Source: Deltaproteobacteria bacterium
GTDB taxonomy: Bacteria > Myxococcota > Myxococcia > SLRQ01
Length of the DNA stretch: 64,000 nucleotides
Assembly: GCA_029210625.1 (NCBI GenBank)
Contig: JARGFU010000001.1
Location: 325,806-389,805 of the forward strand
Reading direction: 5' to 3'
Below, one piece after another: positions 4,128 to 59,402 of the stretch (positions are counted from its first letter, which is position 1; every line of letters begins with the position of its first letter). Below the pieces are notes generated by a model. That model searched no databases and had not been told where the DNA came from. It saw only the letters and a program-made list of their open reading frames with translations. The position numbers and the translations under genes are program-made.

Positions 4128-4296
4128 GGGGCACAGATCTATTCGCCCTGGCCCTCCCGTGTAAACCAGGGTCCCGGGAGAATCCCCTCGTCCAGGTGCA
4201 ACTTTCCACCTGAAGCCCGTAAAATGGCCGGATAGGGGCCGGAGAGGGGAATCTCCTCTCTCTCCTGCATGAACCCGAATCGCCAGAGAGGCCGAG

Positions 4297-7928: not shown

Positions 7929-7931
7929 CCG

Positions 7932-41256: not shown

Positions 41257-41319
41257 CTCCACCGCAGCTCCTCGGGGCACCTCGCTGGCCCGTCGCCACG
41301 GCGAGGAGTAGATTGGCCC

Positions 41320-43212
41320 TTGTTGAGCGCGCCGGGAAAAAGACGGCTGGTCTTCGTCCAGTTCTCGCCTACCACCGAGGGGAGCCGGCGCTCGCCGCTC
41401 TTCTTCTCCACGGCGATCTACCAGCTCAAGGCCTACCTGGAGAGCGATCCGGTCCTGAAGGAGCGCTACGAGCTGGAGATCCGCCTCATCGAGGAGCCGG
41501 GGCAGAGCCGCTTCAAGGACTGCGACGCCTACTACATCGACACCCTGCGCACGCTGCTGGCCGGGGACCCCGACGTGCTGGCCTTCAGCCTCTACGTCTG
41601 GAACCTCGACAGCGCCCTGAACCTCGCCCGGGCGCTGCGGCCCATGCGCCCGGACCGCCTCCTCCTCGCCGGGGGTCCCGAGATCTACGAGCGGCCCCGC
41701 TTCGTCGAGAGCTACCCGGAGTTCGACCTGCTCCTCGAGGGTGACGGCGAGCTCCCCCTGCAGCGCACCCTCCACGCCCTCCTCGAGCGCGAGCCCCCCC
41801 TCGAGGGCATCGAGGGCCTCTCCTTCCGGGACGCGAGGGGCGAGTGGGTCCACAACCGCTCCAACCTCCAGACCCTCGACCTCGACGAGATCCCCAACTT
41901 CTACGCCGAGCACCCCGAGCAGCTCTACGGTCAGGCCAACTACATGACCACCCGGGGCTGCTCCTTCGCCTGCACCTACTGCCTCTGGGCCAAGCAGCGC
42001 TTCCGCGCCCGCTCTCCGGCGACGATCCTCGCCGAGCTGGAGACCATCCTCTCGGCCGAGGCCGTCGACAGCCTCTCGATCTGGGACTACGACCTCCTCG
42101 AGGTCTTCGAGAACGAGCCGGAGCTGGGCACCACCTTCATCGAGTTCTTCGAGCGGCACCGCCGCGCCCCCCTCCACTTCTTCTCCACCGCGGAGCACCT
42201 GGCCGCGGCGCCGGTCGAGCTCCTCACCGAGCGCCTCAACGTCGGCCGGATCAGCGTCGGCGTGCAGTCGTGCAACCCCGAGACCCTCCTGGCGGTGAAC
42301 CGGCCCTGGGCGGCCGATCCCCTGGAGCACCTGGCCCGGGTGGACGACCACCTCCGGACGCTGATCTCGATCCAGCTCGTCTACCCGATGCCGGCGGAGA
42401 CCCCGGAGACCTTCCTCGAGCTGGTGCGCTCCCTGACCCGCCTGGGCTACTTCCGGATCCAGATCTTCCCGCTGATGGTCCTGCGGGGGACCTCGATGTC
42501 GAAGCACGCCGACCGCTGGGGTCTCGAGCACCTCTCCGCCCCGCCCTACTACTGCTACCGGACCCCCAGCGCGGCGCCGGACTCGGTGTGGACGGTCACC
42601 GGGCTCGCCCGGGTCCTCGAGATCATCGAGACCCGCTCCGCTCCCCTCGACCCCGGCGAGCGGCTCCTGCGCTGGTACCGCGCCCACCCGGGGCTGGTGG
42701 ACGACTTCATCGCCCGCATCGCCGCCGGGGACGAACCCGAGGCGATCGCCCTCGACACCCTGCGCGAGGCCCTCCCCGAGCTGGCCCCCTCCGAGCCGGT
42801 GCCCGAGTACGAGCCGGAGCCGGAGCCTGAACCCGAACCCGAACCCGAGCCGGAGCCCGAACCGGAGCCCGAGCCGGAGCCGGAGCTCGAGTCCCCGGAC
42901 ACGGGCCGACCTCCCCCGGTGGACTGGAACGACATCGGGGACGAGGTCATGCGCCTGCTGGCCGAGACCTGGCCGCCGGGGGTCGAGGTGAGCTTCGGCG
43001 AGGAGCACATCGCGCTGACCCTCTATCCCGAGCGCGGCCCGGCCCAGCTCGTCCTGCGCCGCTCGGCCTCGGGCGAGCCCTACTACCGCGCCACCTCCCG
43101 CTACGAGCTCTCCTACGGCGGCGCCTTCCCGGACCTCGGGATCGTCGACCGGATCGCCGAGCTCCTCGAGGGCATCGCGCCCCCCCGGCAGGGCGAAGAG
43201 GAGGGAGCGTGA
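41320..43212 (+). CDS. B12-binding-domain radical SAM enzyme (class B-like) with C-terminal (EP)n low-complexity tail
   Basis: N-terminal cobalamin-binding-like domain. TTRGCSFACTYCLW is a CxxxCxxC motif. TTG start with a GAGGAG RBS. Confidence 0.8.
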   Translation: MLSAPGKRRLVFVQFSPTTEGSRRSPLFFSTAIYQLKAYLESDPVLKERYELEIRLIEEPGQSRFKDCDAYYIDTLRTLLAGDPDVLAFSLYVWNLDSALNLARALRPMRPDRLLLAGGPEIYERPRFVESYPEFDLLLEGDGELPLQRTLHALLEREPPLEGIEGLSFRDARGEWVHNRSNLQTLDLDEIPNFYAEHPEQLYGQANYMTTRGCSFACTYCLWAKQRFRARSPATILAELETILSAEAVDSLSIWDYDLLEVFENEPELGTTFIEFFERHRRAPLHFFSTAEHLAAAPVELLTERLNVGRISVGVQSCNPETLLAVNRPWAADPLEHLARVDDHLRTLISIQLVYPMPAETPETFLELVRSLTRLGYFRIQIFPLMVLRGTSMSKHADRWGLEHLSAPPYYCYRTPSAAPDSVWTVTGLARVLEIIETRSAPLDPGERLLRWYRAHPGLVDDFIARIAAGDEPEAIALDTLREALPELAPSEPVPEYEPEPEPEPEPEPEPEPEPEPEPEPELESPDTGRPPPVDWNDIGDEVMRLLAETWPPGVEVSFGEEHIALTLYPERGPAQLVLRRSASGEPYYRATSRYELSYGGAFPDLGIVDRIAELLEGIAPPRQGEEEGA

Positions 43213-44196
43213 GCGGCCCCCGCCTCCATGTGCCCCTCAAGGCCGTGGACGAGGTCGGCCCCCTGGTCGAGGCCGGCGCCGGCTCCTTCTACGCCGGCCT
43301 CATCCTGCCTCGCCCCGGGGGGGGAGGACGCCGCGGCGGATCCCGCGAGCTGCCTGGTCAGCCGGCGTGCCCACCCCAGCAACAACTTCCAGCGGGTGGA
43401 GGACTTCCTCGAGGCCCAGCGCCAGCTCCACGCCGCGGGCAGATCCCTCTTCCTCACCCTCAACGAGCACAGCAACCCGCCGGAGGTGGTGGACCGCATC
43501 GAGGCCCTCCTCCAGCAGCTGGTCTCGAGCCCGGGGCTCACCGGCGTCATCGTCGCCGACCTCGGCCTCGCCCGCTTCCTCTCGGAGCGCTTCCCCGAGC
43601 TGATCCTGGTGGCCAGCACCGGCCTCGCCCTCTCCAACAGCGGCGCGGTGGAGCTGGTGCGCCGCCTCGGCATCCGGCGGGTGGTCTTCCCGCGGATGCT
43701 CCACCTGGAGGAGATGGCCGCCCTGGTCGAGCGCTGCCCCGAGGTCGAATTCGAGACCTTCGTGATGAACGACCGCTGCCCGAACGTCGACGGGCTCTGC
43801 AACTTCGTCCACTGGGAGGTCGGTGAGACCCACTTCCCCAACCAGTGCCGCTTCGTCCGCCTCGACGGCGCCACGGGTCCCGACCAGCGCCCCGGCAACT
43901 TCAACCTCTCCCTCCGCTTCCGGGAGGACGCCTGCGGCGCCTGCTCCCTCCACGCCCTGCGAGAGGCCGGCGTGCAGCACCTGAAGATCGTCGGCCGGGA
44001 TCGGGGGCTCGAGAACAAGCGGCAGGCGGTGAGCTTCCTGGCCGGGCTCCTCGAGCGGCTGGCGGCCGGCCCCCTCCCCGCCGGCGAGTTCCACGCGCTC
44101 GCCCGCGAGCGCTACGCCGAGACCTTCGGCCGGGCCTGCACCCCCGACCAGTGCTACCTTCCCGGCGAGGGTGAGGCCAAGGAGCCCGCGGCCTGA
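43209..44196 (+). CDS. U32-family (collagenase-like; UbiU/RlhA/TrhP-type) protein, frameshifted at a G8 tract
   Basis: The N-terminus MSGPRLHVPLKAVDEVGPLVEAGAGSFYAGL is in frame 0. From 43325 on, homology continues in frame +1 (RAHPSNNFQRVEDF...IVADLGLARF...FVMNDRCPNVDGLCNFVHW). GTG start overlaps the upstream stop (GTGA). Confidence 0.65.
43317..43324 (+). repeat. G8 homopolymer at the U32 frameshift site
   Basis: cgccccGGGGGGGGagg. Deleting one G restores a continuous U32 reading frame. Confidence 0.7.
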
Positions 44197-44241
44197 TCGG
44201 ACCCCTCGAGGGCCGCTCACCCCGGAAGCGACGGTAGCTCG

Positions 44242-45681
44242 ATGGAACAGGCCCTCTTCGTCTCCTGCCTGGACGATCTGCGACACGCCCACACGCGGCG
44301 CTACGATCGGATCTACTTCGGGGTCGAGGTCTGCCACTGGCTGATGCCGAGCCCCCTCCAGCTGCGCTCGGCCCTCGACTTCGCGAAGCTGCAGGGCCTG
44401 CCGCTCACCCTCGTCACGCCCGTCCTCCCCGAGGTGGGCCTCGAGCGCGTCCGCCCCCTCCTCGCGCTCCTCCCGCCGGGCAGCGAGGTCGTGGTGAACG
44501 ACCTGGGGCTGATCCCCGACGTGAGCGAGGCCGGTCACCACCCCCTCCTGGGGAGGATCCTGCTCAAGGTGAAGCGCGACCCCCGGATCGGCGCCGAGGA
44601 TCTGGAGCACCCGGGCCTGGCCGCGCACCTGCGCGCGTCGAACGTGACCAACCACGCCTTCCAGGCGCTGCTGCGCTCCCTGGGCATCCAGCGCATCGAG
44701 CTGGACAACGTGCAGCAGGGCTACGACCTCGACCTGCCCGACGATCTGCGCACCTCGCTCTATCGCCCCTACGTCTCGGCCGCCGTCACCCGCCGCTGCG
44801 GCCTGAACTTCAGCGAGGGGAACACCGATCTCCTCTGGCGGGACGGGAGCTGCCGGGAGCACTGCCAGGAGACCCAGCTGGAGGTGAGCACCCTCAAGCA
44901 GGTGGGCTCGACGAAGGTCTGGGCCTCCTACCAGGCGCGAGGGGCCAGCCTCTTCTACGCCAACCACGCCGAGCCGGAGGACACCGAGGGCTGGAACCTC
45001 GACCGGGAGGTCCACCTCCCCCGCCCGCCGGTCTTCGCCTCCCTGCCGCCGGACGAGGCCGAGCCCGCCTGGGACAGCGCCTACCGCGAGCAGGGCCTCG
45101 AGGTCGCCTGGAACCACGCCGAGGCCGACCCCCTCCTGCTCGAGCTCGCCGGCCGGGAGCCTCCCCTCGAGGGGGCGAACGCCCGGGCGGTGGAGCTCGG
45201 CTGCGGCACCGGCCGCAACGCCGCCGCCCTGCAGGACCTGGGCTTCGAGGTGCTGGGGATCGAGCGCTCGCCGGCGGCCCTGGCCCTGCTCCGCGAGCAC
45301 CACCCGGCGGTGCAGGCGGTGCTCGGGGACGTGCTCGAGTTCCCCCTGGCCGACGACGCCCACGCGCTGGTGGCCGACTACGGCTGCCTCCATGCCCTCG
45401 CCCCCTCCCGCTGGGGGCGCTACGCCGAGCGGGTGAAGGCCACCCTCGCCCCGGGGGGCCGCCTCCTCCTCTTCGCCCGCCGGCTCCCCGAGGGTCACGC
45501 CCCCGAGGCCCCCGTCTTCGTCGTACCGGGCGGCCTCCCCGAGTGGGGCCTCTCGGAGGCCCACGCCCGTGAGCTCTTCGGGCCCTCCCTCTCCCTGGAG
45601 GAGGTGGTCCCCTACGAGGGCGCCGCCCACGCCTCCGGCGTCGAGCAGTTCAACTACTTCCTCTTCCGGAGGATCGCGTGA
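44242..45681 (+). CDS. fusion protein: U32-family (UbiV-like) domain + class I SAM-dependent methyltransferase domain
   Basis: N-terminal DRIYFGVEVCHWLM...VVVNDLGLI is U32-like. C-terminal VELGCGTGRNAAAL...PGGRLLLF is an MTase motif I / post-I pattern. Confidence 0.75.
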   Translation: MEQALFVSCLDDLRHAHTRRYDRIYFGVEVCHWLMPSPLQLRSALDFAKLQGLPLTLVTPVLPEVGLERVRPLLALLPPGSEVVVNDLGLIPDVSEAGHHPLLGRILLKVKRDPRIGAEDLEHPGLAAHLRASNVTNHAFQALLRSLGIQRIELDNVQQGYDLDLPDDLRTSLYRPYVSAAVTRRCGLNFSEGNTDLLWRDGSCREHCQETQLEVSTLKQVGSTKVWASYQARGASLFYANHAEPEDTEGWNLDREVHLPRPPVFASLPPDEAEPAWDSAYREQGLEVAWNHAEADPLLLELAGREPPLEGANARAVELGCGTGRNAAALQDLGFEVLGIERSPAALALLREHHPAVQAVLGDVLEFPLADDAHALVADYGCLHALAPSRWGRYAERVKATLAPGGRLLLFARRLPEGHAPEAPVFVVPGGLPEWGLSEAHARELFGPSLSLEEVVPYEGAAHASGVEQFNYFLFRRIA

Positions 45682-46763
45682 GCCTCACCCCCCTCAAGGG
45701 CTTCACCCCGGCCGCCTCGACGCCTCGCCTCATCGCCGGCCCCTGCGCCGCCGAGACCCGGGAGCAGGTCCTGGAGGCGGCCCGCGCGCTGGCGGGGACG
45801 CCGGGGCTGATGTGGTTTCGCACGGGGGTCTGGAAGCCGCGCACCCGCTCGGCGAGCTTCGAGGGCGCGGGCGAGCCGGCCCTCGCGTGGCTGGCCGAGG
45901 TCCGGGAACTGGGGCTCGAGCCCTGCCTGGAGGTCGCCCTCCCGCGGCACGTGGAGCAGGCGCTGGCCGCCGGCATCGACTGCTTCTGGATCGGCACCCG
46001 CACCGTGGGCAGCCCCTTCGCGGTGCAGGAGCTGGCCGACGCCCTCGCCGGCTGCGGCGAGGTCTCGCTCCTGGTGAAGAACCCCCTGAGCCCCGACCTG
46101 GGCCTCTGGCTCGGCGCCCTCGAGCGCCTGGAGCGCGCCGGGCTCACGCGCCTGGGCGGGATGCACCGCGGCTTCCTGATGCACTCCCAGGAGGGCCAGC
46201 CCCGGGGAGAGCGCTATCGCTTCAGCCCCCGCTGGCGCCTGGTCCTGGCGCTGCGCCGCCTCCTGCCCGACCTGCCGATCTTCGCGGACCCCAGCCACCT
46301 CGCCGGCCACCGCGAGCTCGTCGGCGAGGTCGCGCAGATGGCCCTCGACCTGGGCCTGGACGGCCTGATGCTCGAGGTCCACCCCCGGCCGGACGAGGCC
46401 CTCTGCGACGCCGAGCAGCAGCTCGATCCGCCCGGGCTCGGCCGGCTCCTCGGCGAGCTGATCCTGCGCCGGCCGGAATCGCCGGCGCCGGCCTTCGGCA
46501 GCGAGCTCGAGAAGCTGCGGGCGGCGATCGACGAGGCCGACGCCGCCATCCTCGAGGCGGTGGCCCGCCGGCTCGGCATCGTCGAGGAGATCGCCCGGCT
46601 GAAGCAGGGGGAGCGGGTGACGCCCTTCCAGCGGGCCCGGATGATCGAGGTGCTCGAGAGCTGGCGGGAGGCGGGCACGAGGCTCGGGCTCGACGACCGG
46701 CTCACGACCGAGCTCTACGAGCTCCTCCACGAGGCCGCCCTCGAGGTGCACTGGAAGCGCTGA
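45678..46763 (+). CDS. bifunctional 3-deoxy-7-phosphoheptulonate (DAHP) synthase (type I-beta) / chorismate mutase (AroQ) fusion
   Basis: LIAGPCAAETREQ and WKPRTRSASFEG blocks are DAHPS/KDO8PS-family. The C-terminal ~90 aa (LEKLRAAIDEADAAILEAVARRLGIVEEIARLK) is a CM domain. GTGA overlap with the upstream gene. Confidence 0.85.
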   Translation: MSLTPLKGFTPAASTPRLIAGPCAAETREQVLEAARALAGTPGLMWFRTGVWKPRTRSASFEGAGEPALAWLAEVRELGLEPCLEVALPRHVEQALAAGIDCFWIGTRTVGSPFAVQELADALAGCGEVSLLVKNPLSPDLGLWLGALERLERAGLTRLGGMHRGFLMHSQEGQPRGERYRFSPRWRLVLALRRLLPDLPIFADPSHLAGHRELVGEVAQMALDLGLDGLMLEVHPRPDEALCDAEQQLDPPGLGRLLGELILRRPESPAPAFGSELEKLRAAIDEADAAILEAVARRLGIVEEIARLKQGERVTPFQRARMIEVLESWREAGTRLGLDDRLTTELYELLHEAALEVHWKR

Positions 46764-48051
46764 GCCGCTCGAGGACCCGCTCGGCCAGGGTGAGCACGCC
46801 CTCGAAGCCGAGGTGCGGCCTCGGGCGCAGGGGGTGGGTGTCCACCTGCGGATAGCCGAACTCGAGCACCGGCAGCTCGGGCGCCCGGCCCGCGATCGCC
46901 CGCGCCTCCCAGGCGCTGCCGATCAACAGATCGAGGGGACCCCGCGTCTCGGCCTCCTCCACGGCCGCCTGGAGCCGCTCCACGCTGGGGTCGAAGAGGA
47001 GGCGCTCGACCCGCGCCTCGACGAGCTCCTGCTCCGGCAGCCCCTCCGGGCCTCCCCGGCTGCGGCAGAAGGCCGTGTCGACCTCGAGGCCGAGATCGTC
47101 GGTGAGGCAGCGCACCATCCCCGGGAGCCACTCCCGGGTGGCGGCGATCATCACCCGCCGGCCGAGCAGGCGATCGGCGACCGTCTCGAGGCGCTCGAGG
47201 ATCCGCTCCTGCTCACGGCCGATGAGCTCGGCCAGGTGGGGCCCCCTCCCCCGCGCCTCACCCAGCGCCTGCAGCCAGGCGCTGCTCCCCTCGAGGGAGA
47301 GGGGCAGGGGCAGCTCGAGCGCCGCCGTCTCGCTCGCCCGCCGCAGCCGCTGGGCGGCCTTGCGGGCCCCGGGCAGCGCGATCAGCTGCTCGCAGGCCGC
47401 CACCCGCTGCAGCTCGGGCCAGGGCGCGCCCGAGAGCCAGGGGGGAAGGAGCTCGAGGCCGAGGAGCCCGGCCAGGCGCGCCAGCTCGAGGAGGTCTCCC
47501 TCGACGTCGCCCTCGCTGCGGTGCGCCAGGTAGCCCAGCAGCCCGAGGGTGTCCGGCTCGACGGCCGGGGCCTCGGCGCAGGCGCCGGCCAGCTCCGCCA
47601 GCAGCACCTCCCAGGCGTCCTCGTAGCTCCGGTCGAGGTGGCGGGTGCGGGCGGCGAGCACCGGCACGCCGTGCCGCTTCTGCAGGGCCCGGGCGACCGC
47701 TCGCAGATCCTCCCCGGCCAGGAGGTAGCGGGGCAGCTCCGAGAGCAGCACCAGCGAGGGCGCGATCCGGGCGAAGGCGCCGTCCGCCGTGCTCATCACC
47801 TCGGACTCGGTGCCCATCACCATCTGGGTGTAGGGGTCCCGGGTGACCCAGAGCCGGTTCGGCGCGTCGGGGCGCGTGAGGGTCTGGCGCAGGTCGTGAT
47901 CGATCATCTGCGCCCGGAAGGCCTCCTCGATGCAGGACGAGCCCCGGTAGAGGAGCAGCGCGTCGGGGATCGCCCCGGCCACCATGAAGACCCCGTCCAT
48001 GAAGGAGGGGGTGGTGCGCAGGGTGTCGTCCCGGGGTGGCGCCTCGCTCAT
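46702..48051 (-). CDS. nitrogenase component-1-like (NifD/K/E/N, BchN/B family) protein
   Basis: GAIPDALLLYRGSSC resembles the conserved GA..IPDA..HG..GC block. GGAGG RBS. ATGA overlap with the upstream gene. Confidence 0.65.
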   Translation of the reverse strand: MSEAPPRDDTLRTTPSFMDGVFMVAGAIPDALLLYRGSSCIEEAFRAQMIDHDLRQTLTRPDAPNRLWVTRDPYTQMVMGTESEVMSTADGAFARIAPSLVLLSELPRYLLAGEDLRAVARALQKRHGVPVLAARTRHLDRSYEDAWEVLLAELAGACAEAPAVEPDTLGLLGYLAHRSEGDVEGDLLELARLAGLLGLELLPPWLSGAPWPELQRVAACEQLIALPGARKAAQRLRRASETAALELPLPLSLEGSSAWLQALGEARGRGPHLAELIGREQERILERLETVADRLLGRRVMIAATREWLPGMVRCLTDDLGLEVDTAFCRSRGGPEGLPEQELVEARVERLLFDPSVERLQAAVEEAETRGPLDLLIGSAWEARAIAGRAPELPVLEFGYPQVDTHPLRPRPHLGFEGVLTLAERVLERLSASSAPRGRPRGGARRARS

Positions 48052-50147
48052 GTCCTGACCTCCGGTCCGCGGAAGGCCGCCAGCCTGCGGCGCGAGTCCA
48101 GCCGCCGCAGCAGCCCGCGGAGCCGGCCGTGGCCGCGGCGATGGCCGGCCTCCCCCATCTCCAGGAGCTGGATGCCCACCGGCGCCGCGCCGGCCGCCCA
48201 GATCTCCCGGCCGGCGTTGTGATCGCAGTAGACGAGATCGAGGGACGCGTCGGCGACGAGCCGGGCGAGCTCGACCTCGTCCTCGACCCGCAGGCGGCGG
48301 GGCCCTCCGCCGGAGGCGTCCGTGGGCTCGTCGTCGCCGCCGAGCTGCACCAGGACGAGCTCGGCGCCGGGGAAGTCCAGGAGCTCCTCCACCGAGGCGC
48401 CGTAGAAGAAGCGGGGATCGAGCACCTCCTCGAAGCTGCCCTGATCGAAGAGCACGCCGATCCGGATGGGCTGCTCCGAGGCGCGCAGCCCGGGCAGCGC
48501 GCTCGCCGCGCCCGCCTCGCCGCCGAGGTCGCGGCCGAGGAAGCGATGGATCGCCTCCAGCCACCGGCGCAGGCCCCGCGGCCCGTAGGGTAGCGCCAGC
48601 TCCAGGTAGGGGAGCTCGAAGCCCTCGAGGAAGCGGGTGAAGGTGTGGCGGATCGGCTCCCAGGGAGAGACGAGGGTCAGGGCCGCCTGGCCGAAGCGCG
48701 CCTCGGCGTCCGCGCCGCGGTAGGGGAGCACGACCTCCCCCAGGGCGAGGCCGTGCCGCTCGAGGGTGCCGGCCAGATCCGCGATCCAGGGGGCCTCGGC
48801 CGGGCCGTAGCCCACCAGGTTGATCCGGGGCGCCCCCTGCAGAGCGGCCGCCGCGCCCTCCTGCGCCTGCACCCGCTCCAGGAACTTGTGCCACCAGTTG
48901 CGCGACTGCGGCTCCTCGAAGCCGGCGAGCACCGGCTCCAGGAAGAGCGCGTCGCTGGCCGCGGGCTCGACGCAGCGGCGGCAGGCCGCCTCGGGGGCGT
49001 CCCCCACCATGTGGAACTCGCAGCCCTCCATCACCCGGGGCCGGGTGCCGGGGAAGCGGCGCACGGTCTGATCGACGATCTGCGCCAGGGTGCGCTCACC
49101 GCCGGTGACCGAGATCGTCTCGTCCAGCCCGGTGACCCGCACCCGCTCGATCTCCATGCGCTCCCGGGGATCGTGACCCCGCCAGGGGCGGAAGCTCGTC
49201 TCGATGCTCCGTCCGAGGGCGCCGGTCCCCATGGCGCACTCCCGCGAGGCGTGGAGCACCATCGGGTCGCTGTCGCGAAGGAAGTTCGCCTCGGCGGTGA
49301 GGCCAAAGGTGTCGGCGTCGCCCCAGGCGGAGAAGAAGCGGCTGCTGGCGTGAGGATCGACGCCGGCCCGGTAGCAGGCCGAGATGAGGCTCTGGCGTTG
49401 CCGCGCGGGCTCTCCCCCGGACTCCGGGGAGGGCTCGCTGGCCGGCGCCTCGGGGGGTGGGCCGGCGGGCGGCTCGGGGGGATCGTCCTTCGGCACCCGG
49501 GCCCAGCCCTGGCGGCCGCCGAGGGTGCGCAGGAGCAGGAAGGTGAGGGCGGTGAAGACCTCCGCCTCGAGCGGCCCCTGCGGGATCAGCCGGCCACCGG
49601 CGAGGGCGAAGCCCTCGCTCTCCTCTCCGGTCTCGCGCAGCAGCACCTCTCCCGCGGCGCCGCCCTCGTCCTCGAGCAGGAAGCGCACGGCCTCCCCCTC
49701 GGCCTCCTCGAGCGCCCTCAAGCACCAGCCGGACCAGAAGGGCCGGCCCAGGGGCAGGAGCCCGGCGATGGCGTCGCCGATCGCCTCGGGGGTGAAGGGG
49801 ATCGGCTCTCCCGGGAGCTCCGGGGCGAGCCAGGGAGCGAAGCCCGCCTCGAGGGCCTGCGTCAGGCGGCGGTGGAAGGCCTCCAGCTGGCGGCGGCTCG
49901 CCTCCCCCCGGGGCAGGCCCTCGCCGCCGATCAGGCGCCAGGCCCCCAGCCCGAGGACCGGCCCCTCCCGGGAGGCGGCGCCGGCCAGCTCGAGGATCAT
50001 CGCCCGCCGGTGGCTGCCCTCACCCCAGGCCAGCTCGAGGCTGCCCTCGGCGGTGGGCCGCAGCCGGGCGGGGCCCTCGCTGCGCGTGCCGAACTTCTCG
50101 GCGAGGTGAGAGAGGACCGAGTCCAGGGGCGGCGGTGCCGAGAACAT
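48048..50147 (-). CDS. nitrogenase component-1-like protein with ~350-aa N-terminal extension of unknown function
   Basis: The C-terminal half shows Oxidored_nitro-like blocks (RINLVGYGPAEAPWIADL..). Tight coupling, 6 nt downstream of the nifH-like stop. Confidence 0.6.
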   Translation of the reverse strand: MFSAPPPLDSVLSHLAEKFGTRSEGPARLRPTAEGSLELAWGEGSHRRAMILELAGAASREGPVLGLGAWRLIGGEGLPRGEASRRQLEAFHRRLTQALEAGFAPWLAPELPGEPIPFTPEAIGDAIAGLLPLGRPFWSGWCLRALEEAEGEAVRFLLEDEGGAAGEVLLRETGEESEGFALAGGRLIPQGPLEAEVFTALTFLLLRTLGGRQGWARVPKDDPPEPPAGPPPEAPASEPSPESGGEPARQRQSLISACYRAGVDPHASSRFFSAWGDADTFGLTAEANFLRDSDPMVLHASRECAMGTGALGRSIETSFRPWRGHDPRERMEIERVRVTGLDETISVTGGERTLAQIVDQTVRRFPGTRPRVMEGCEFHMVGDAPEAACRRCVEPAASDALFLEPVLAGFEEPQSRNWWHKFLERVQAQEGAAAALQGAPRINLVGYGPAEAPWIADLAGTLERHGLALGEVVLPYRGADAEARFGQAALTLVSPWEPIRHTFTRFLEGFELPYLELALPYGPRGLRRWLEAIHRFLGRDLGGEAGAASALPGLRASEQPIRIGVLFDQGSFEEVLDPRFFYGASVEELLDFPGAELVLVQLGGDDEPTDASGGGPRRLRVEDEVELARLVADASLDLVYCDHNAGREIWAAGAAPVGIQLLEMGEAGHRRGHGRLRGLLRRLDSRRRLAAFRGPEVRT

Positions 50148-50153
50148 CTGGGC

Positions 50154-51017
50154 TCACGACCCCCGCTGGCTCCCGGACCGCGCGGCCCGGGCGTGCTCCT
50201 GGAAGAGGGCCCGCAGCTCGACGTCGGAGAGCGGGGTGGGCACGATCCGCTCGAGGGCCGCCTCGTCGGCGATCGCCTCGAAGATCGTCACGAGCGCTCC
50301 GCTGGCCTCGCCGGTGGCCCCCTCGCCGCTCCGGAAGAGGGGCTCGCCCTCGAGCTCCGAGAGCACCACCTCCTCGGAGAAGGGGAGGTGACCCACCAGG
50401 CGGGTCTGCAGGGCCTCGGCGAAGCGCTCGAGGAGGCGCAGCTCCTCCGGGCTTCGCACCTTGTTCCCGATGATCCCGGCGACCCGGGCCTGGCCGATGT
50501 CGGAGAGGTTGTCGACGCCGCGGGCGATGTTGTTGGCGGCGTAGAGCGCCATGTACTCGGCGGAGGTGATGAGGAAGACGTCCGAGGGGATGTCCTCCCG
50601 CAAAGGCGTGGCGAAGCCACCGCAGACCACGTCCCCCAGGACGTCGAAGAAGGCCAGGTCGTAGGTGCGCTCGAGCTCCATGGACTCCCGCACCATCTCC
50701 AGCACCAGGCTCACCGCGCGGCCGGCGCAGCCGGTCCCCGGCTCGGGCCCGCCGGTCTCGATGACGTCGACCCCGGTGGGGGTCGAGACGATGAGCCGTT
50801 GCAGATCCTCGGGCCCCATCCGCCCGACCAGGCGGAGGAACTCCTGCATCACCGTGGGCACGGGCTCCCCCCGGTGATGGGCCAGGGTCGAGTCGTGCTT
50901 CGGATCGCAGCCCACCTGCAGCACCCGCAGATCGCGGCTCGCGCCCACCGAGGCGAGGCCCGAGCAGAGGGTCGACTTCCCGATCCCTCCCTTGCCGAAG
51001 AGGATGATCCTTCGCAC
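50154..51017 (-). CDS. NifH/BchL/ChlL-family ATP-dependent reductase iron protein homolog
   Basis: GKGGIGKST P-loop, GCDPKHDST, both cluster Cys (CAGR, VCGGFA). GTG start with an AAGGAAG RBS. Confidence 0.9.
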   Translation of the reverse strand: MRRIILFGKGGIGKSTLCSGLASVGASRDLRVLQVGCDPKHDSTLAHHRGEPVPTVMQEFLRLVGRMGPEDLQRLIVSTPTGVDVIETGGPEPGTGCAGRAVSLVLEMVRESMELERTYDLAFFDVLGDVVCGGFATPLREDIPSDVFLITSAEYMALYAANNIARGVDNLSDIGQARVAGIIGNKVRSPEELRLLERFAEALQTRLVGHLPFSEEVVLSELEGEPLFRSGEGATGEASGALVTIFEAIADEAALERIVPTPLSDVELRALFQEHARAARSGSQRGS

Positions 51018-51233: not shown

Positions 51234-51257
51234 GGAATCTTGATTTCTGGTTTAGTA
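51234..51257. promoter_or_regulatory. right arm of the inverted-repeat pair (GGGAATCTTGATTTCTGGTTTAGT)
   Basis: See 51088. The pair brackets ~120 bp of the divergent promoter region between nflH-like and the 51302 gene. Confidence 0.5.
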
Positions 51258-51301
51258 TGGGGCCCCGGAGGCCCGGTGCCCAGCAGATCACCCTCCATTC
51301 G

Positions 51302-52579
51302 ATGCGCTACAATCGCCGGGTGAACCATCGCCTCTCCCTCGCCCTCGTCCTCCCGGCCCTCCTCCTGACGATCCTCGCCGCCGCCTGCTCCGACACCGGC
51401 ACCGGCGTCTGCCCGGACACCGACGAGGACGGGGTCTGCGACCTGAACGAGGCCTGCCCGGGCGGCGACGACAAGGTCGACACCGACCTGGACGGAGTGC
51501 CGGACGACTGCGACAGCTGCCCCCTGAACTGGCCCGACGACTCGGACCTCGACGGCACCTGCGACGTCGACGACCTCTGCCCCGGCCACTCCGACCTCCT
51601 CGACGGGGACGGCGACGGTATGCCGGACGACTGCGACCGCTGCCCCCTCGACAACCCCGACGACTCGGATGGCGACACCCGCTGCGACAGCGACGATGTC
51701 TGCCCCGGCGGCGACGACCGGCAGGACTCCGACGGCGACGGCACCCCCGACGCCTGCGATCTCTGCCCGAACGACACGACCGGCGACTCCGACCTCGACG
51801 GGGTCTGCGACAGCGTGGACCTCTGCCCGGGCTTCGACGACGGCGTCGACTCCGACGGTGACGGGATCCCCGACGGCTGCGACACCTGCAGCTCCGCCTT
51901 CGACACCGACGGCGACTCGGTGCCGGACGACTGCGACGCCTGCCCCGGCTTCGACGACGCGATCGACGCCGACCTCGACGGCGCGCCGGACGGCTGCGAC
52001 CTCTGCCCGGGCTTCGACGACCGGACCGACGCCGACGCCGACGGGATCCCCGACGACTGCGACCTCTGCCCCGCCGGGCCCAACGGCGTCGACACCGACG
52101 GTGACACGGTCCCCGACGCCTGCGACGCCTGCCCGGGCTTCGACGACCGGATCGACCTCGACGGCAACGGCCGCCCCGACGGCTGCGACCCGGCCCTGCC
52201 CGCCCCCACCGGGGTCCGGGCCAGCGGCGACGTCTGCAGCTGGGGCGTCTTCTGGGACGCGGTCACCGACGCCACCTCCTACGAGGTGGGCTGGTTCTGC
52301 AGCGGCTCCTACCAGGGAGACGGCTGCTCCACCGACGCCGACTGCGACTTCACCCTGGTCTGCGTGGGGAGCAGCCCGCCGAGGGTCTGCACCGCCCCGA
52401 CCGCCCACTCGACCACCGGCACCAGCGTGATCCTGGAGAACACCGCCATCGTCACCGGCGGGCAGTGCCTGGTGGTGGACATGGTGGTGAGGGCCTGCGG
52501 CGACGCCGGCTGCAGCGAGTGGGTGCACGTCCCCGCGAGCGGCCTGCCCCTGGCCTGCGGCGGCGGCTGCTGCGTGTAG
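51302..52579 (+). CDS. lipoprotein with ~15 thrombospondin type-3-like Ca-binding repeats (DxDxDGxxDxCDxC) and Cys-rich C-domain
   Basis: Signal LLLTILAAACS. Repeats such as DSDGDGIPDGCDTC and DTDGDTVPDACDAC. Confidence 0.75.
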   Translation: MRYNRRVNHRLSLALVLPALLLTILAAACSDTGTGVCPDTDEDGVCDLNEACPGGDDKVDTDLDGVPDDCDSCPLNWPDDSDLDGTCDVDDLCPGHSDLLDGDGDGMPDDCDRCPLDNPDDSDGDTRCDSDDVCPGGDDRQDSDGDGTPDACDLCPNDTTGDSDLDGVCDSVDLCPGFDDGVDSDGDGIPDGCDTCSSAFDTDGDSVPDDCDACPGFDDAIDADLDGAPDGCDLCPGFDDRTDADADGIPDDCDLCPAGPNGVDTDGDTVPDACDACPGFDDRIDLDGNGRPDGCDPALPAPTGVRASGDVCSWGVFWDAVTDATSYEVGWFCSGSYQGDGCSTDADCDFTLVCVGSSPPRVCTAPTAHSTTGTSVILENTAIVTGGQCLVVDMVVRACGDAGCSEWVHVPASGLPLACGGGCCV

Positions 52580-52588
52580 GAGAGCACG

Positions 52589-53008
52589 GTGTTTCGCCTG
52601 CTCGAGGAGCGGCCCGGCTCAAAGGGGGCACCGGGCGCCGCCACCGAGCTCGAGCCCGCGGAGCTCTCGGGCGCCACCGGCCCGCGGATCGTCTGCGCGG
52701 GCTGCCTGCACGTCCTCACCCGCGGGAGCGAGCGCATCCCCGTGGAGGGCGAGCACGAGCACGTCCGGGTGAACCCCTTCGGCTACGCCTTCCGCTTCGC
52801 CTGCTTCGCCCGGGCGCCGGGCTGCGTCCTGCGGGGCGAGGCGGAGCGCACCGCCACCTGGTTCCCGGGCCGCGCCTGGCGCTACGCCCACTGCGGCGGC
52901 TGCGGCGGACACCTGGGCTGGCACTGGGAGCAGCTCGCCGGCGAGGGGAGCTTCTTCGGGCTGATCGTCCCCCGCATCACCGAGCTACGCGACGCCCCCG
53001 AGGCCTGA
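52589..53008 (+). CDS. CULT-like (cereblon/Mss4-like beta-tent) zinc-binding domain protein
   Basis: CAGC...(~75 aa)...HCGGCGGHLGWHWE mirrors the CxxC...CxxC...GW motif of cereblon-type thalidomide-binding domains. GTG start with an AGGAGA RBS. Confidence 0.5.
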   Translation: MFRLLEERPGSKGAPGAATELEPAELSGATGPRIVCAGCLHVLTRGSERIPVEGEHEHVRVNPFGYAFRFACFARAPGCVLRGEAERTATWFPGRAWRYAHCGGCGGHLGWHWEQLAGEGSFFGLIVPRITELRDAPEA

Positions 53009-53018
53009 AGGCCGAGCT

Positions 53019-55181
53019 TCAGCGGCAGACCGAGAGGTAGCGGGTGGTCCCGAAGACCTCGTGGGGCTCGACCTTGCAGTGGCGCCCCCCGCTGCAGTCG
53101 GCGTCGACGCAGCAGCGGGCCAGGCAGACCCCGGCGCCCAGGTCGCAGACCCCCGAGGCGCACTCGGCGGGGTGGGTGCAGGGCGCGCCGACCACCCCGG
53201 TGGCCGTATCCGGCGCCAGGAGGCAGAGGTCGAAGTCGCCGTAGGCTCCGTAGTTCTGCTTGCCGCAGAAGTGCCGGCGGCCGTTCACCGCGCCGGCGCA
53301 GTCGGCGGCGGTGCAGCAGGGAAGCGTGCAGTAGTCGAGGACGCAGTCGTTGGCGTCCTGCTGCCGGTCGTAGTCCCCGCACCAGGCGTTGGCGTCGGCC
53401 GGACAGCTCGCGGGCGTGGCGCAGGAGGTGTCGTAGGAGACCACCGCCGAGCAGAGCCCCGCCCGGCAGCTCTGGGTGGGCGCGGCCGGGGGCGTGGCGC
53501 AGCCGGCGGTGCCCAGGTCGTCCGCCGGCGCGCCGGCCAGGCAGGCCAGGCGCCCGCCGGAGACCACCGAGCAGACCTCCCCCGGGCAGTGGGCGCCGGT
53601 GCAGCAGCTCTCCTTGCAGACCCCGCCCTCGCAGACGCCGCTGCGGCACTCGGCGTCGGCGATGCAGGGCGCGTGGGCCCGGGCGGCCAGGCCCAGGGCG
53701 GCGTCGGGCTGGCAGAGGCGCAGCATGCAGCCGGAGCAGGCGGCGTCGGGGTCCTTCTCCGGGCGGCAGACCCAGCCCGCCGGGCAGTCCGCCTGGCGGC
53801 AGCACTGCGCGCTGCAGAGGGTCCCGCCGCCGAGATCGTCGACGCCCAGCCCCGAGGCGCAGGCGGTGCAGATCCCGCCGGGGCAGGGCTGGCCCACGTC
53901 ACCGTAGTCCACCGCCGAGCAGCGCCCGCTGCCGGGATCGCAGGTCTGGCCGTGGGGGCAGTCGTACTCGCGGTTGCAGCCCGCGACGCAGTAGCCGCCG
54001 GCCTCGGGCAGCCCGCCGCCGTCGGTGTCACAGACCGTGCTCGGCGGATTGCACGCCGCGTCCGAGAGGCAGTCGCGCGCCTCGCAGTGGCCGGCCGAGG
54101 GCCCCGAGAGGAGGCAGCGCTGCGCCGCCGGGCAGTCGGCGTGGGAGGTGCAGCCCGGCACGCAGGCGCTGCCCTGACAGACGAAGCGCGGCGGCGCGCA
54201 GTCGGCGTCGGCGCCGCAGCTCGAGGGCAGACAGATCCCGCTCGCCAGGTGGCAGCTCTCGCCGCCGGCGCAGTGCCCGTCCGAGGTGCAGCCGGGCTCG
54301 CAGAGCTCGGCCACGCAGCGCGGGGCGCCGTCGGGGCAGTCGGCGTCGGTCCCGCAGGGGGGCATGCAGAAGCCGGAGGTGGGGCTCGCCGGATCGAGAT
54401 CGCAGCTCGGCCGGTCGGCCAGCTCGCAGTCGGCGTGGGCGGCGCAGGGCGGGTGGCAGCGGCCGTCGAGGCCACAGTTGGGCAGGGTGAGGTCCCGGCA
54501 CTCGCTGCTGGTGCGGCAGGGAGGCAGGCAGCGGCCGCTCACCGGCTCGCAGACCGGGAGGGCGTCGGGGCAGGCCGCCCCCGGGCAGCGGCCCTGACAG
54601 AGGCCCGTGCCGGGGTCGCAGACCGGGAGGGCCGGCGGGCAGTCGGCGTCCCGGGCGCAGGGCCCCTGGCACTCGGTGGTGTCGGGGTTGCAGTTGGGCA
54701 GGTCGGCGTTCGGGCAGTCGAGGTGATCCGCGCAGGGATCGTAGCAGCGGCCGTCGGTGCCGCAGTAGGCCTTGCCGATGGCGGCGCAGGAGGTCTGCGG
54801 GCAGGGCGCCAGGCAGACGCCGGCCGCCTCGTCGCAGTTGGGCTCGAAGCCGGGGCAGGGCCAGATCGGACAGGGGGGCCGGCAGAGACCCGCGACCGGA
54901 TCGCAGACCGGGGTGGCGGGATCGATGCAGTCGGCCGCCACCGCGCAGGCGGCGAAGCAGACGCCGAAGCGAGTGTCGCAGTTCGGGCGGGACCCCTGGC
55001 AGTCATTGCTCGAGGTGCAGCCCGGCACGCACTCGCACTCGTAGCAGACCTCTCCCACGACACACTGCGTGCAGTCGCAGGGGAGCGGCTCCTTCGGGCA
55101 GCCACCCAGCAGGAACGAGAGCGAGAGGATGGAGAGCGCGATCCCCCGGTCGAGCCAAGTCATCGGAGAACCATAGCGCAT
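53019..55181 (-). CDS. large lipoprotein built from ~25 Myxococcus-type cysteine-rich repeats
   Basis: Lipobox FLLGGC. Repeated C-x3-5-DC-x5-8-C-x4-8-G-x-C units such as SNDCQGSRPNCDTRFGVC and DADCPPALPVCDPGTGLC. GGAGG RBS. Confidence 0.8.
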   Translation of the reverse strand: MRYGSPMTWLDRGIALSILSLSFLLGGCPKEPLPCDCTQCVVGEVCYECECVPGCTSSNDCQGSRPNCDTRFGVCFAACAVAADCIDPATPVCDPVAGLCRPPCPIWPCPGFEPNCDEAAGVCLAPCPQTSCAAIGKAYCGTDGRCYDPCADHLDCPNADLPNCNPDTTECQGPCARDADCPPALPVCDPGTGLCQGRCPGAACPDALPVCEPVSGRCLPPCRTSSECRDLTLPNCGLDGRCHPPCAAHADCELADRPSCDLDPASPTSGFCMPPCGTDADCPDGAPRCVAELCEPGCTSDGHCAGGESCHLASGICLPSSCGADADCAPPRFVCQGSACVPGCTSHADCPAAQRCLLSGPSAGHCEARDCLSDAACNPPSTVCDTDGGGLPEAGGYCVAGCNREYDCPHGQTCDPGSGRCSAVDYGDVGQPCPGGICTACASGLGVDDLGGGTLCSAQCCRQADCPAGWVCRPEKDPDAACSGCMLRLCQPDAALGLAARAHAPCIADAECRSGVCEGGVCKESCCTGAHCPGEVCSVVSGGRLACLAGAPADDLGTAGCATPPAAPTQSCRAGLCSAVVSYDTSCATPASCPADANAWCGDYDRQQDANDCVLDYCTLPCCTAADCAGAVNGRRHFCGKQNYGAYGDFDLCLLAPDTATGVVGAPCTHPAECASGVCDLGAGVCLARCCVDADCSGGRHCKVEPHEVFGTTRYLSVCR

Positions 55182-55278: not shown

Positions 55279-56820
55279 TCAGCCCCGCAGGACCCCCATG
55301 AGGATCTTCAGCCCCTCGACGGTCGCGGGGCCCGGCTCACCGCCCTCGACGCGGTAGCCGCCGCTCGGCTTGCTGCGCTCCTGCGCCAGCCAGAAGGTCA
55401 GCCGCGCGCCCTCGGGGCCCTCGAGGGAGAGCTCGGCCCGCTGGCCGTCCACCGAGAGCTCGAGGGCCGTCCAGCGCAGCTCGCCGAAGGGGGCCGCCGC
55501 GCGCAGGCGGCCGAGGCGGCCGCGCAGGCGGCGCTCGCCCCGGCCGAGGAGATCGCGGCCCGGCGGGTGCACCGGCCGCTCGCCGCCGGCGAGCAGCCCC
55601 TCGAAGAGGGCCAGCAGCGCCTCGTAGACCCCCGCCTCGTCGTCGGGCGCCGAGCGCAGGTGGATCGAGAAGTCGGCGAAGCCGCAGAGGCCCACCTCGG
55701 AGGCGGGGCGCAGGGCGAAGACGAGCTCCCCGGGCTCACCCTCGAGGTGCAGCTCGAGCTCGTTGTCGGCGGTGAGCGAAGGCGCCGCCGCGCCGAAGGC
55801 GGCGAGGGGGCCGAGGGCCGCGGCGCGCTGACCGGCGGCCCAGAGGTGGGGCCAGAGCACGCGCCGGTTCGGGTCGGCCTCGCGCAGCTGCTCGACGTTC
55901 ACCGGCTCGAGCTCCTCGAGGCCGTAGAAGTCCCGGTAGGTCTCGAAGGTCCCCGAGCAGCGCGCGGTGAAGACGCAGGACGCGCAGCCGGTGGTCTTGA
56001 GCTTGTCGGTGCGCTTGTCCTCGTACTTGTCCCAGGGCGCGGAGAGCGCGTCGTCACCGTCGACCGAGACCGTGTAGGTCATCTCGCCGTCGTGGTGGAT
56101 CCACCGGGCGAGGTGCGGCGCCACGCAGTAGGGCAGGTTGCCGATGTTGAGATCGAAGTCGCCGGCGACGCCCTGCGCCAGGGCGGTGAGGGGCCCCCGC
56201 AGCTCGGCGTAGCTCGGGAGGATCGCCCGCAGCTCCTCCTCCTCGCGCACCCCGGCGTCCCGCGGCCGCATCATGTCGAGGTGGAGCTGGTCGATCCCGT
56301 AGCGCTCGATCAGCTCGGGGAAGTGCTGCACGGAGGCGGCGTTGCTCTTCACCACGCACATGTTCGCCGAGACCCGCTCCCCCCGCTCGCGCAGGCCCTC
56401 GAGGGTGGCGAGGATCCGGCCGAAGGAGCCCGGGCGGCGGGTGGTGGCCTCGTGGGCCTCGGCGGTGGCGCCCTGCAGCGAGAGCCGCCAGCGCAGCGGT
56501 GCGCCGAGGGCGATGAGCTCGTCGATGTAGCTGCCCCGCGCGGTCTTCACGCCGTTGGTGAAGAGGACCACCTCCTCGAAGCCCAGCGCGGCGCAGCGCT
56601 GCAGCACGGCCTTGAAGCCGGGCTGGAGGGTGGGCTCACCGCCCAGGAGGGTGATCTTCCGCAGGCCGTGGGCGTGGGCCGCCTCGATGTGCTCCAGGAT
56701 CGGCTCCACCGGCATCGGCCCCGCCTCGCCCCAGGAGGTGCGCTGCCCGCTGACGCAGAAGACGCAGCGGTTGTTGCACATGTGCCCGAGCTGGATCTCG
56801 GCCTGGCGGGTCGGCTCCAT
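55279..56820 (-). CDS. radical SAM/SPASM-domain enzyme with novel C-terminal domain (paralog of 7932-10097)
   Basis: CNNRCVFC is a CxxxCxxC motif. CASCVFTARC is a SPASM-type motif. The C-terminal LELSVDGQRAELSLEGPEG motif is shared with the 7932 gene. AGAAGGTAG RBS. Confidence 0.85.
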   Translation of the reverse strand: MEPTRQAEIQLGHMCNNRCVFCVSGQRTSWGEAGPMPVEPILEHIEAAHAHGLRKITLLGGEPTLQPGFKAVLQRCAALGFEEVVLFTNGVKTARGSYIDELIALGAPLRWRLSLQGATAEAHEATTRRPGSFGRILATLEGLRERGERVSANMCVVKSNAASVQHFPELIERYGIDQLHLDMMRPRDAGVREEEELRAILPSYAELRGPLTALAQGVAGDFDLNIGNLPYCVAPHLARWIHHDGEMTYTVSVDGDDALSAPWDKYEDKRTDKLKTTGCASCVFTARCSGTFETYRDFYGLEELEPVNVEQLREADPNRRVLWPHLWAAGQRAAALGPLAAFGAAAPSLTADNELELHLEGEPGELVFALRPASEVGLCGFADFSIHLRSAPDDEAGVYEALLALFEGLLAGGERPVHPPGRDLLGRGERRLRGRLGRLRAAAPFGELRWTALELSVDGQRAELSLEGPEGARLTFWLAQERSKPSGGYRVEGGEPGPATVEGLKILMGVLRG

Positions 56821-59064: not shown

Positions 59065-59156
59065 ACGACCTGGCAGTATAGGCCGCCGTCGGCAGGATGC
59101 GGTTGCAGGACGACCCGAAAGCCTGTCATCTTCGGCTGGAGAGAGGACCCAACCCC

Positions 59157-59402
59157 TTGGCGAAGAAGGAAGACCTGAAGCCACCCACCGAGGAGGCGGC
59201 CGACCCGGTGCGCCGGGGCAAGCGCCTGCGCCGCTACCTCGCGCCGAAGATCCGGACCCTCGCCCTGCCGACCCTCCAGGCCAGCCCCGCCTGCGGACCG
59301 GCCGGCTGCCCGCCCAACCTCCAGGGCTGCGGACCCAACGTCTGCGGTCCGGTCATGCCGCCCCCGAGCTGCGGACCCGCGGGCTGCGGGCCCCGCAACT
59401 GA
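59157..59402 (+). CDS. candidate Cys-rich precursor peptide (core ACGPAGCPPNLQGCGPNVCGPVMPPPSCGPAGCGPRN)
   Basis: A small ORF in the 345-bp gap directly upstream of, and divergent from, the maturase. TTG start with a GGAGAGAGG RBS; an alternative ATG lies at 59097. There are five CGP motifs in 40 aa, encoded by a CTGCGGNCC nucleotide repeat. Confidence 0.45.
   Translation: MAKKEDLKPPTEEAADPVRRGKRLRRYLAPKIRTLALPTLQASPACGPAGCPPNLQGCGPNVCGPVMPPPSCGPAGCGPRN

Follow-up and report, generated by a model that had tools for sequence, protein, structure and literature searches.

Here we describe a three-gene nitrogenase-like (NFL) reductase operon in a 64,000-nucleotide stretch of DNA from a Deltaproteobacteria bacterium of the phylum Myxococcota (contig JARGFU010000001.1, positions 325,806 to 389,805; hereafter, the window). 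The locus is a real, well-formed operon that encodes a NifH-like Fe protein (NflH) followed by two component-1-like proteins, which we refer to as D-like and K-like. Matched by description, the operon probably encodes a Group VI-type NFL reductase, in which an ATP-driven NflH dimer would feed an inter-subunit (D/K) [4Fe-4S] cluster of DPOR/COR-like type for the reduction of an organic substrate, with an additional domain at the N-terminus of the D subunit taking part in substrate binding or hand-off. We include in this reading, at the same level of confidence, that the H-D-K genes form a self-contained module that is independent of the neighbouring, convergent prephenate/U32 operon. The system is not unprecedented; it belongs to a recorded family without a characterised member. 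Group VI is the one NFL group of this kind, and the locus contributes a complete H-D-K operon, carried by a 530-kb contig of Myxococcota. Our analysis further adds a ligand map that predicts a 3+1 [4Fe-4S] site, and a conserved N-terminal domain (N-domain) that offers a handle for finding the substrate.

The three genes are carried on the minus strand (Table 1) and are tightly coupled. The TGA of nflH is followed by a 6-nt spacer (gcccag) and the ATG of the 699-aa D-like gene, whose stop codon (TGA) shares an ATGA at positions 48048-48051 with the ATG start of the K-like gene (449 aa). The last 62 bp of the K-like gene are shared with a convergent gene on the plus strand (45678-46763), which encodes a DAHP synthase-chorismate mutase fusion by Pfam, and the overlap falls where the K-like protein is poorly conserved, in its C-terminal tail. 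An earlier reading of this DNA (the original prediction) had described the same tight coupling, spacer, ATGA overlap and 62-bp convergent 3' overlap, and the coordinates of the open reading frames match it exactly. The window has a G+C content of about 73%, and its proteins are deposited in GenBank under MDF1561698-701 ("MAG: Deltaproteobacteria bacterium", where MAG denotes a metagenome-assembled genome), the NFL proteins being MDF1561699-701. Our search for a sigma-70-like promoter found none, and the single terminator-like site was within chance expectation. A search with Rfam near the cluster, covering twelve sources (the window and 11 related loci), did not recover a cobalamin riboswitch, another riboswitch or any Rfam family.

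The Pfam results place all three proteins among the nitrogenase-like systems. NflH matched Fer4_NifH (E = 3.4e-65), the D-like protein matched Oxidored_nitro at residues 297-540 (E = 6.7e-13) and the K-like protein matched the same family over its full length (E = 1.3e-39), all far beyond chance. These results bear out the NifH plus two NifD/K-like composition put forward in the original prediction, both component-1-like proteins being detected by the Oxidored_nitro model. The curated NCBIfam models did not assign the proteins to a known enzyme. NflH scored 231 bits with nifH (cutoff 394), 224 with CfbC (cutoff 402), 182 with BchL (cutoff 345) and 145 with BchX (cutoff 331). The K-like protein produced weak matches to BchN (39-43 against cutoffs of 324-420) and BchB (37 against 490), and the D-like protein had no NCBIfam match at all. 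The nearest solved chain to NflH is MarH of the methylthio-alkane reductase Mar (9fmg_D, E = 7.6e-53). A profile of the D-like family matched solved Mar chains at E = 2.9e-19, and the K-like protein reached only 4.9e-7 against the Mar chains (9fmg, 9d9u). In a Foldseek search, the D-like core matched BchB, VnfD and NifE at E values of about 1e-10. The sequence identity of the window D-like and K-like proteins is 16-19% to NifD/K and likewise 16-19% to BchY and BchZ. The separation from nitrogenase, DPOR/COR, CfbCD and Mar implied in the original prediction therefore stands, since the NCBIfam scores are far below cutoff and the ligand pattern differs from that of each of these systems.

We searched 1.84 billion representative sequences exhaustively with HMMER, using the 699-aa protein as the query. 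The search returned 132 representatives at E <= 1e-3, mostly 670-730 aa in length, and none of them was a canonical NifD/K, BchN/B or similar protein, indicating a small and distinct family that is far from the classical clades. A word-indexed protein search with the D-like query or with the 19-sequence family alignment (A3) returned only the query itself, so the exhaustive search was needed to see the family. The relatives belong mainly to Myxococcota, plus one Elusimicrobia MAG, and there are also metagenome contigs and distant members on long contigs. In a bootstrapped neighbour-joining (NJ) tree of the H proteins, the window protein clustered with its homologues from Elusimicrobia and Myxococcota and away from NifH, MarH, BchL and BchX, with 84% support.

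The metal sites of the three proteins are consistent with a simple cluster chemistry. NflH contains a Walker A motif, GKGGIGKST, and the two cluster cysteines that the original prediction had recognised, which are located at exactly positions 97 and 132. We mapped the ligands of the D-like and K-like proteins by profile alignment to MarD and VnfD, and by MAFFT alignment with NifDK from a Rahnella plasmid and BchNB and BchYZ from a Roseobacter plasmid. Among the residues that are invariant across the 19 aligned D-like proteins are H299, C304 and C376, the two cysteines corresponding to NifD C88 and C154, respectively. A further cysteine, C258, possibly corresponds to NifD C62 and is a cysteine in just 9 of 16 members. 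At the FeMo-co ligand position NifD C275, the window D-like protein has P495/W496, and the column of the second ligand, NifD H442, is variable across the family and is occupied by Q in the window protein. In the K-like proteins, C40 is invariant (19/19 members) and is located at the position of NifK C95, BchB D36 and the BchZ cysteine; the equivalents of NifK C70 and C153 are absent. Overall, the ligand positions singled out in the original prediction show that three to four of the six P-cluster cysteines are kept and that both FeMo-co ligand positions (NifD C275 and H442) are lost. The surviving pattern predicts a single DPOR/COR-type [4Fe-4S] cluster between D and K with a 3+1 split, and one inter-subunit cluster with such ligands is the simplest reading of the alignments. 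With no P-cluster and no FeMo-co or L-cluster, N2 would not be the substrate.

The D-like protein is extended at its N-terminus by a two-lobed domain and a Pro/Glu-rich linker (Table 1). The AlphaFold2 model of the whole 699-aa protein (pLDDT 76.7) is folded at residues 1-215, drops to low confidence (pLDDT below 50) in the linker at residues 219-250, and enters the component-1 core at about residue 253. Residues 1-222 modelled alone gave a pLDDT of 86 and a pTM of 0.83, again with two alpha+beta lobes. We recovered no Pfam family for the N-domain in any of 16 members and no match in a PDB sequence search; the best Foldseek match had an E value of 0.05, providing no solved structural relative, and hhalign detected no internal duplication. 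A profile of the N-domain detected it N-terminally in about 85 family proteins, among them the Elusimicrobia homologue (E = 3.6e-42), paralogues encoded by second gene copies and proteins from clusters with the gene order D-K-H, which makes the domain a hallmark of the family and not a quirk of the window gene. The original prediction of an N-terminal extension of about 350 aa with no relatives was partly upheld: the extension is present, and by Pfam, PDB and Foldseek it has no relatives outside the family, but it is about 250 aa long (domain plus linker) and does have relatives in the approximately 85 family proteins. Some family members are longer (P0058, P0061, P0094 and P0131; 860-960 aa), and in P0058 the N-domain is found at residues 271-485, with additional sequence preceding it.

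Group VI nitrogenase paralogues were defined in groundwater Elusimicrobia and were found also in fourteen genomes of aquatic Myxococcales and two of Gracilibacteria, according to the passages on this group in Méheust et al. (2020). The cultivated Enhygromyxa salina SWB007 is among the carriers of a Group VI nifH listed there. The same passages describe a NifH with a GXGXXG motif and C97/C132, very divergent D/K proteins that have lost some P-cluster cysteines, the absence of cluster-assembly genes, several copies in some genomes, and many adjoining radical SAM genes, some of them B12-binding; they propose, speculatively, a role in tetrapyrrole reduction. The section on Group VI in North & Shafaat (2026, Chemical Reviews) gives at most four of the six cysteines, missing C275 and H442 ligands and no NifB in the genomes, and it ranks the functions of such NFL systems among the main challenges of the field. 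A Nature paper of 2025 that deals with MCR activation also uses the label "group VI" and notes that it is debated whether the proteins contain an active-site cluster.

The window family resembles Group VI in the P-loop and C97/C132 of its NifH, in D/K proteins with three to four P-cluster cysteines and no equivalents of NifD C275 and H442, in relatives from Elusimicrobia and Myxococcota, in the multiple copies at some loci (L008, L017, L027 and L032 in our numbering of related loci), and in nearby radical SAM genes that include B12-binding ones. As for NifB, none is encoded among the approximately 35 window genes scanned. It differs in that the window MAG (MDF1561699-701) is outside the genome list of Méheust et al. 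(2020), and in that the family has the approximately 215-aa N-domain in the D subunit, which the Group VI passages of Méheust et al. (2020) and North & Shafaat (2026) do not mention. The original prediction had left the function of the operon unassigned, in agreement with a Group VI family that has no characterised member.

By analogy with DPOR, COR and CfbCD, the NflH homodimer would hold a [4Fe-4S] cluster on C97 and C132, bind and hydrolyse MgATP, and hand low-potential electrons to the single [4Fe-4S] cluster located where the D-like and K-like subunits meet. The putative ligands of the interface cluster are C304, C376 and probably C258 of the D-like protein and C40 of the K-like protein, an arrangement that would have the 3+1 split of the DPOR NB-cluster while using cysteines throughout, as COR does. 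The interface cluster would reduce an organic substrate in the D/K cavity, the likeliest reaction being one in which a C=C bond of a conjugated or hydrophobic compound is reduced stepwise by 2e-/2H+. The N-domain would most likely serve in binding or handing over the substrate, or in docking a partner protein.

Several points weigh against this reading. In the H tree, the whole family, including the second-copy paralogues, was separated from the references with just 59% bootstrap support. Phylogenetic membership of Group VI is not proven and is just probable, because the tree was built without the original Group VI sequences and without CfbC/D and IsrHDK. The equivalence of C258 and NifD C62 is weak, the spacing between C258 and C304 being 46 residues as against 26 in NifD, and the model has low confidence in this part. 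The association with radical SAM genes is missing from about half of the loci, and the absence of NifB holds within the 64-kb window only. We infer the type of cluster, the substrate and the reaction, as well as the electron path and the role of the N-domain.

An H-D-K or D-K-H module is kept across otherwise unrelated gene neighbourhoods, the order being D-K-H at three loci (L012, L016 and L020). Four loci (L008, L017, L027 and L032) harbour double clusters, and the H proteins of the second copies at L008 and L017 form a separate clade with 100% bootstrap support in the NJ tree, suggesting that the duplication is old. The second, divergent NFL cluster adjoins the first in the opposite orientation at L008 2661-7554, L017 15711-20010, L027 14758-15981 and L032 2760-4665. 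The flanking genes vary by locus and are mostly housekeeping genes, such as those for purine synthesis, glycosyltransferases, Ldh and a tRNA synthetase. Radical SAM genes are the sole recurrent neighbours of the homologous clusters: a Pfam census of 69 neighbour open reading frames from 11 further loci returned Radical_SAM tied with NAD_binding_8 as the commonest family, with three each. Radical SAM genes are immediately adjacent to the cluster at L016 (radical SAM-SPASM), L018 and L022 (B12-radical SAM) and L021. Beyond these genes, the neighbourhood is uninformative.

The locus L021 contains five radical SAM genes beside its NFL cluster. Its His-Xaa-Ser system is bona fide, with an HxsB that scores 501 bits (cutoff 370) and with HxsA4-like, HxsD-like and HxsC4-like genes; a second nflH is present as well. 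In this radical SAM-rich locus (L021 64-6033 and 13401-21852), in which the NFL H-D-K genes are embedded, we also noted two B12-radical SAM genes, a carbamoyltransferase and a glycosyltransferase. In the window, three radical SAM genes are located within 10 kb of the operon (Table 1), and the HxsC-like one is homologous to the HxsC-like gene beside the L021 cluster (E = 7.5e-29). The HxsC-like and SPASM radical SAM genes are possible, though unproven, partners of the NFL operon. None of the approximately 35 window genes scanned is a nifB, nifE, nifN, bch or cfb gene, the radical SAM proteins being of B12, HxsC-like and SPASM types and not NifB, which agrees with the lack of a chlorophyll, F430 or cofactor context remarked on in the original prediction.

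Table 1. Features of the NFL operon and of the radical SAM genes near it (positions in the window; residues where stated)
Feature	Position	Strand	Description
nflH	50154-51017	minus	287 aa, GTG start; NifH-like Fe-protein ATPase
NflH Walker A	residues 8-16		GKGGIGKST
NflH C97	50727-50729	minus	putative [4Fe-4S] ligand
NflH C132	50622-50624	minus	putative [4Fe-4S] ligand
D-like gene	48048-50147	minus	699 aa, ATG start; alpha/BchN-type
D-like N-domain, residues 1-215	49503-50147	minus	two-lobed alpha+beta, family-specific
D-like linker, residues 216-252	49392-49502	minus	Pro/Glu-rich, predicted disordered; ARVPKDDPPEPPAGPPPEAPASEPSPESGGEPARQRQS
D-like component-1 core, residues 253-699	48048-49391	minus	from Pfam Oxidored_nitro, family alignment A3 and MarD/VnfD profile alignment
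D-like C304	49236-49238	minus	invariant; NifD C88
D-like C376	49020-49022	minus	invariant; NifD C154
K-like gene	46702-48051	minus	449 aa; beta/BchB/BchZ-type
K-like C40	47932-47934	minus	invariant; NifK C95
B12-type radical SAM	41320-43212	plus	assigned by Pfam
HxsC-like radical SAM	55279-56820	minus	4.3 kb upstream; Radical_SAM 1.5e-21; NCBIfam HxsC4 1.2e-23, below cutoff
Radical SAM/SPASM	56830-59352	minus	840 aa; Radical_SAM 3.5e-22, SPASM 1.7e-4; all NCBIfam matches below cutoff

We considered several other accounts of the substrate. Tetrapyrrole reduction toward a novel cofactor, the role first proposed for Group VI, is unlikely in our view, although there is an analogy behind it: all simple-[4Fe-4S] NFL systems of known function (DPOR, COR and CfbCD) reduce tetrapyrroles, and the Group VI passages of Méheust et al. 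derive the proposal from phylogeny and from radical SAM, HemN_C and B12 neighbours. The window SPASM radical SAM protein has weak AhbD/NirJ-like matches, but these are generic and far below cutoff, no tetrapyrrole biosynthesis gene is present in the window or in the related loci examined, and the Rfam search described above speaks against the proposal as well. CfbCD is likewise a simple [4Fe-4S] NFL system, and the CfbC model scored NflH nearly as high as nifH did; CfbD, in contrast, is a single type of subunit where the window has two distinct D/K paralogues, the CfbC cutoff was not reached, and the context is bacterial and non-methanogenic. Group VI enzymes might instead not be tetrapyrrole reductases at all, the N-domain capturing a hydrophobic or peptide-derived product of HxsC-like, SPASM or B12-radical SAM maturases ahead of an ATP-driven [4Fe-4S] reduction. 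We put this forward as a tentative idea with a rather small chance of being correct; if true, anaerobic members of the Myxococcota and Elusimicrobia would produce a cofactor or natural product by way of a structurally unprecedented N-domain. An isethionate reductase-like (Isr, Group IV-F) or Mar-like enzyme, carrying out reductive C-S or C-X cleavage with a radical SAM partner in the anaerobic scavenging of sulfur or another nutrient, appears improbable. IsrBHDK, which we compared by description only, is predicted to be a simple [4Fe-4S] NFL system that needs a radical SAM partner, and radical SAM genes do recur near the window family; isrB, in contrast, is directly upstream in a sulfonate-assimilation locus, and the region directly upstream has, in the window and in related loci alike, neither genes for sulfonate, taurine or sulfur assimilation nor an isrB- or marB-type gene. 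Mar (MarBHDK; PDB 9fmg, 9d9u) provides the closest solved structures by sequence, through MarH and MarD, but Mar contains an L-like [8Fe-9S-C] cluster in addition to a P-cluster and depends on MarB or NifB, whereas the window family lacks both the P-cluster cysteines of Mar and its C270/H429 ligands, and the window is without a NifB-like gene. No N-domain is reported for Isr or Mar.

Two further accounts are drawn from the chlorophyll enzymes and from the neighbouring operon. DPOR (BchL/N/B) and COR (BchX/Y/Z) share with the predicted window system the three components, the lack of an M-cluster and a single inter-subunit [4Fe-4S] with 3+1 ligands, K-like C40 aligning exactly with BchB D36 and the BchZ cysteine. 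Photosynthesis gene clusters are described for some Myxococcota (PMC10576062), and the K-like protein has the weak BchN and BchB matches given above. The window proteins nevertheless show only 16-21% identity to these enzymes, with equivalog scores far below cutoff and no chlorophyll genes nearby; the D subunit has an extra N-domain, and of the three alpha-type cysteines one varies among family members. The NCBIfam scores effectively refute a role as DPOR or COR in bacteriochlorophyll synthesis by a phototrophic myxobacterium, to which we give almost no chance. We dropped the bacteriochlorophyll, F430, Mar and true-nitrogenase identities on the basis of curated scores and ligand positions. The original prediction had also suggested a pathway shared with the prephenate/U32 operon. 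The NFL enzyme would then act together with the B12-radical SAM, U32, U32-methyltransferase and DAHP synthase-chorismate mutase proteins, for example in the reduction of an aromatic or quinone-type intermediate linked to prephenate-dependent, O2-independent hydroxylation. The two operons are adjacent with the 62-bp 3' overlap, both have chemistries of an 'anaerobic style', and the prephenate/U32 operon includes a B12-radical SAM gene, radical SAM genes being typical neighbours of Group VI. By tblastn, gene tables and the Pfam census, however, genes for U32, chorismate mutase (CM_2), DAHP synthase and aconitase-like proteins adjoin the cluster at none of approximately 17 homologous loci with flanking sequence, and an orthologue of the window B12-radical SAM was not detected beside the other clusters. 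Convergent transcription speaks against co-regulation, and the overlap is confined to the unconserved tail of the K-like protein. The shared pathway is therefore not supported and seems highly improbable to us, and with synteny uninformative apart from the radical SAM genes, a link to the U32/prephenate operon is not worth pursuing on synteny grounds. The Group VI-type reading, with an H-D-K module that would act independently of this operon, remains the one that we favour.

The convergent operon itself (39277-46763, plus strand) consists of five tightly packed genes. The first encodes a fused LeuD/LeuC-type aconitase-family protein and the second a B12-binding radical SAM protein that is KedN5-like and has an (EP)n repeat. 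The third encodes a U32 protein with weak UbiU/TrhP similarity, and the fourth a 479-aa protein whose C-terminal half is a SAM methyltransferase and whose N-terminal half is without assignment. The fifth encodes the DAHP synthase-chorismate mutase fusion. Prephenate is the oxygen donor of U32 hydroxylases, and the gene content would point to a pathway that hydroxylates independently of O2, methylates, and is supplied with prephenate by its own genes.

On the other side of the operon, two repeat proteins are encoded between nflH and the upstream radical SAM genes. The first (51257-52579, plus strand) is an Asp/Cys-rich protein with thrombospondin-type-3-like DxDxDG repeats and a weak MtsC match, and the second (53019-55181, minus strand) is a 720-aa cysteine-rich protein with a signal-like N-terminus. 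The product of the gene at 52589-53008 (plus strand) is 139 aa long, contains two CxxC pairs (VCAGC ... HCGGCGGHLGW) and matches neither a Pfam nor an NCBIfam model; it may be a small zinc-binding protein. Farther away, the window encodes a fourth radical SAM protein of 722 aa (7929-10097, plus strand) and a multi-haem cytochrome with c7 and Geobacter-type motifs (4273-5658, plus strand), both of which would fit a MAG that lives anaerobically or microaerobically.

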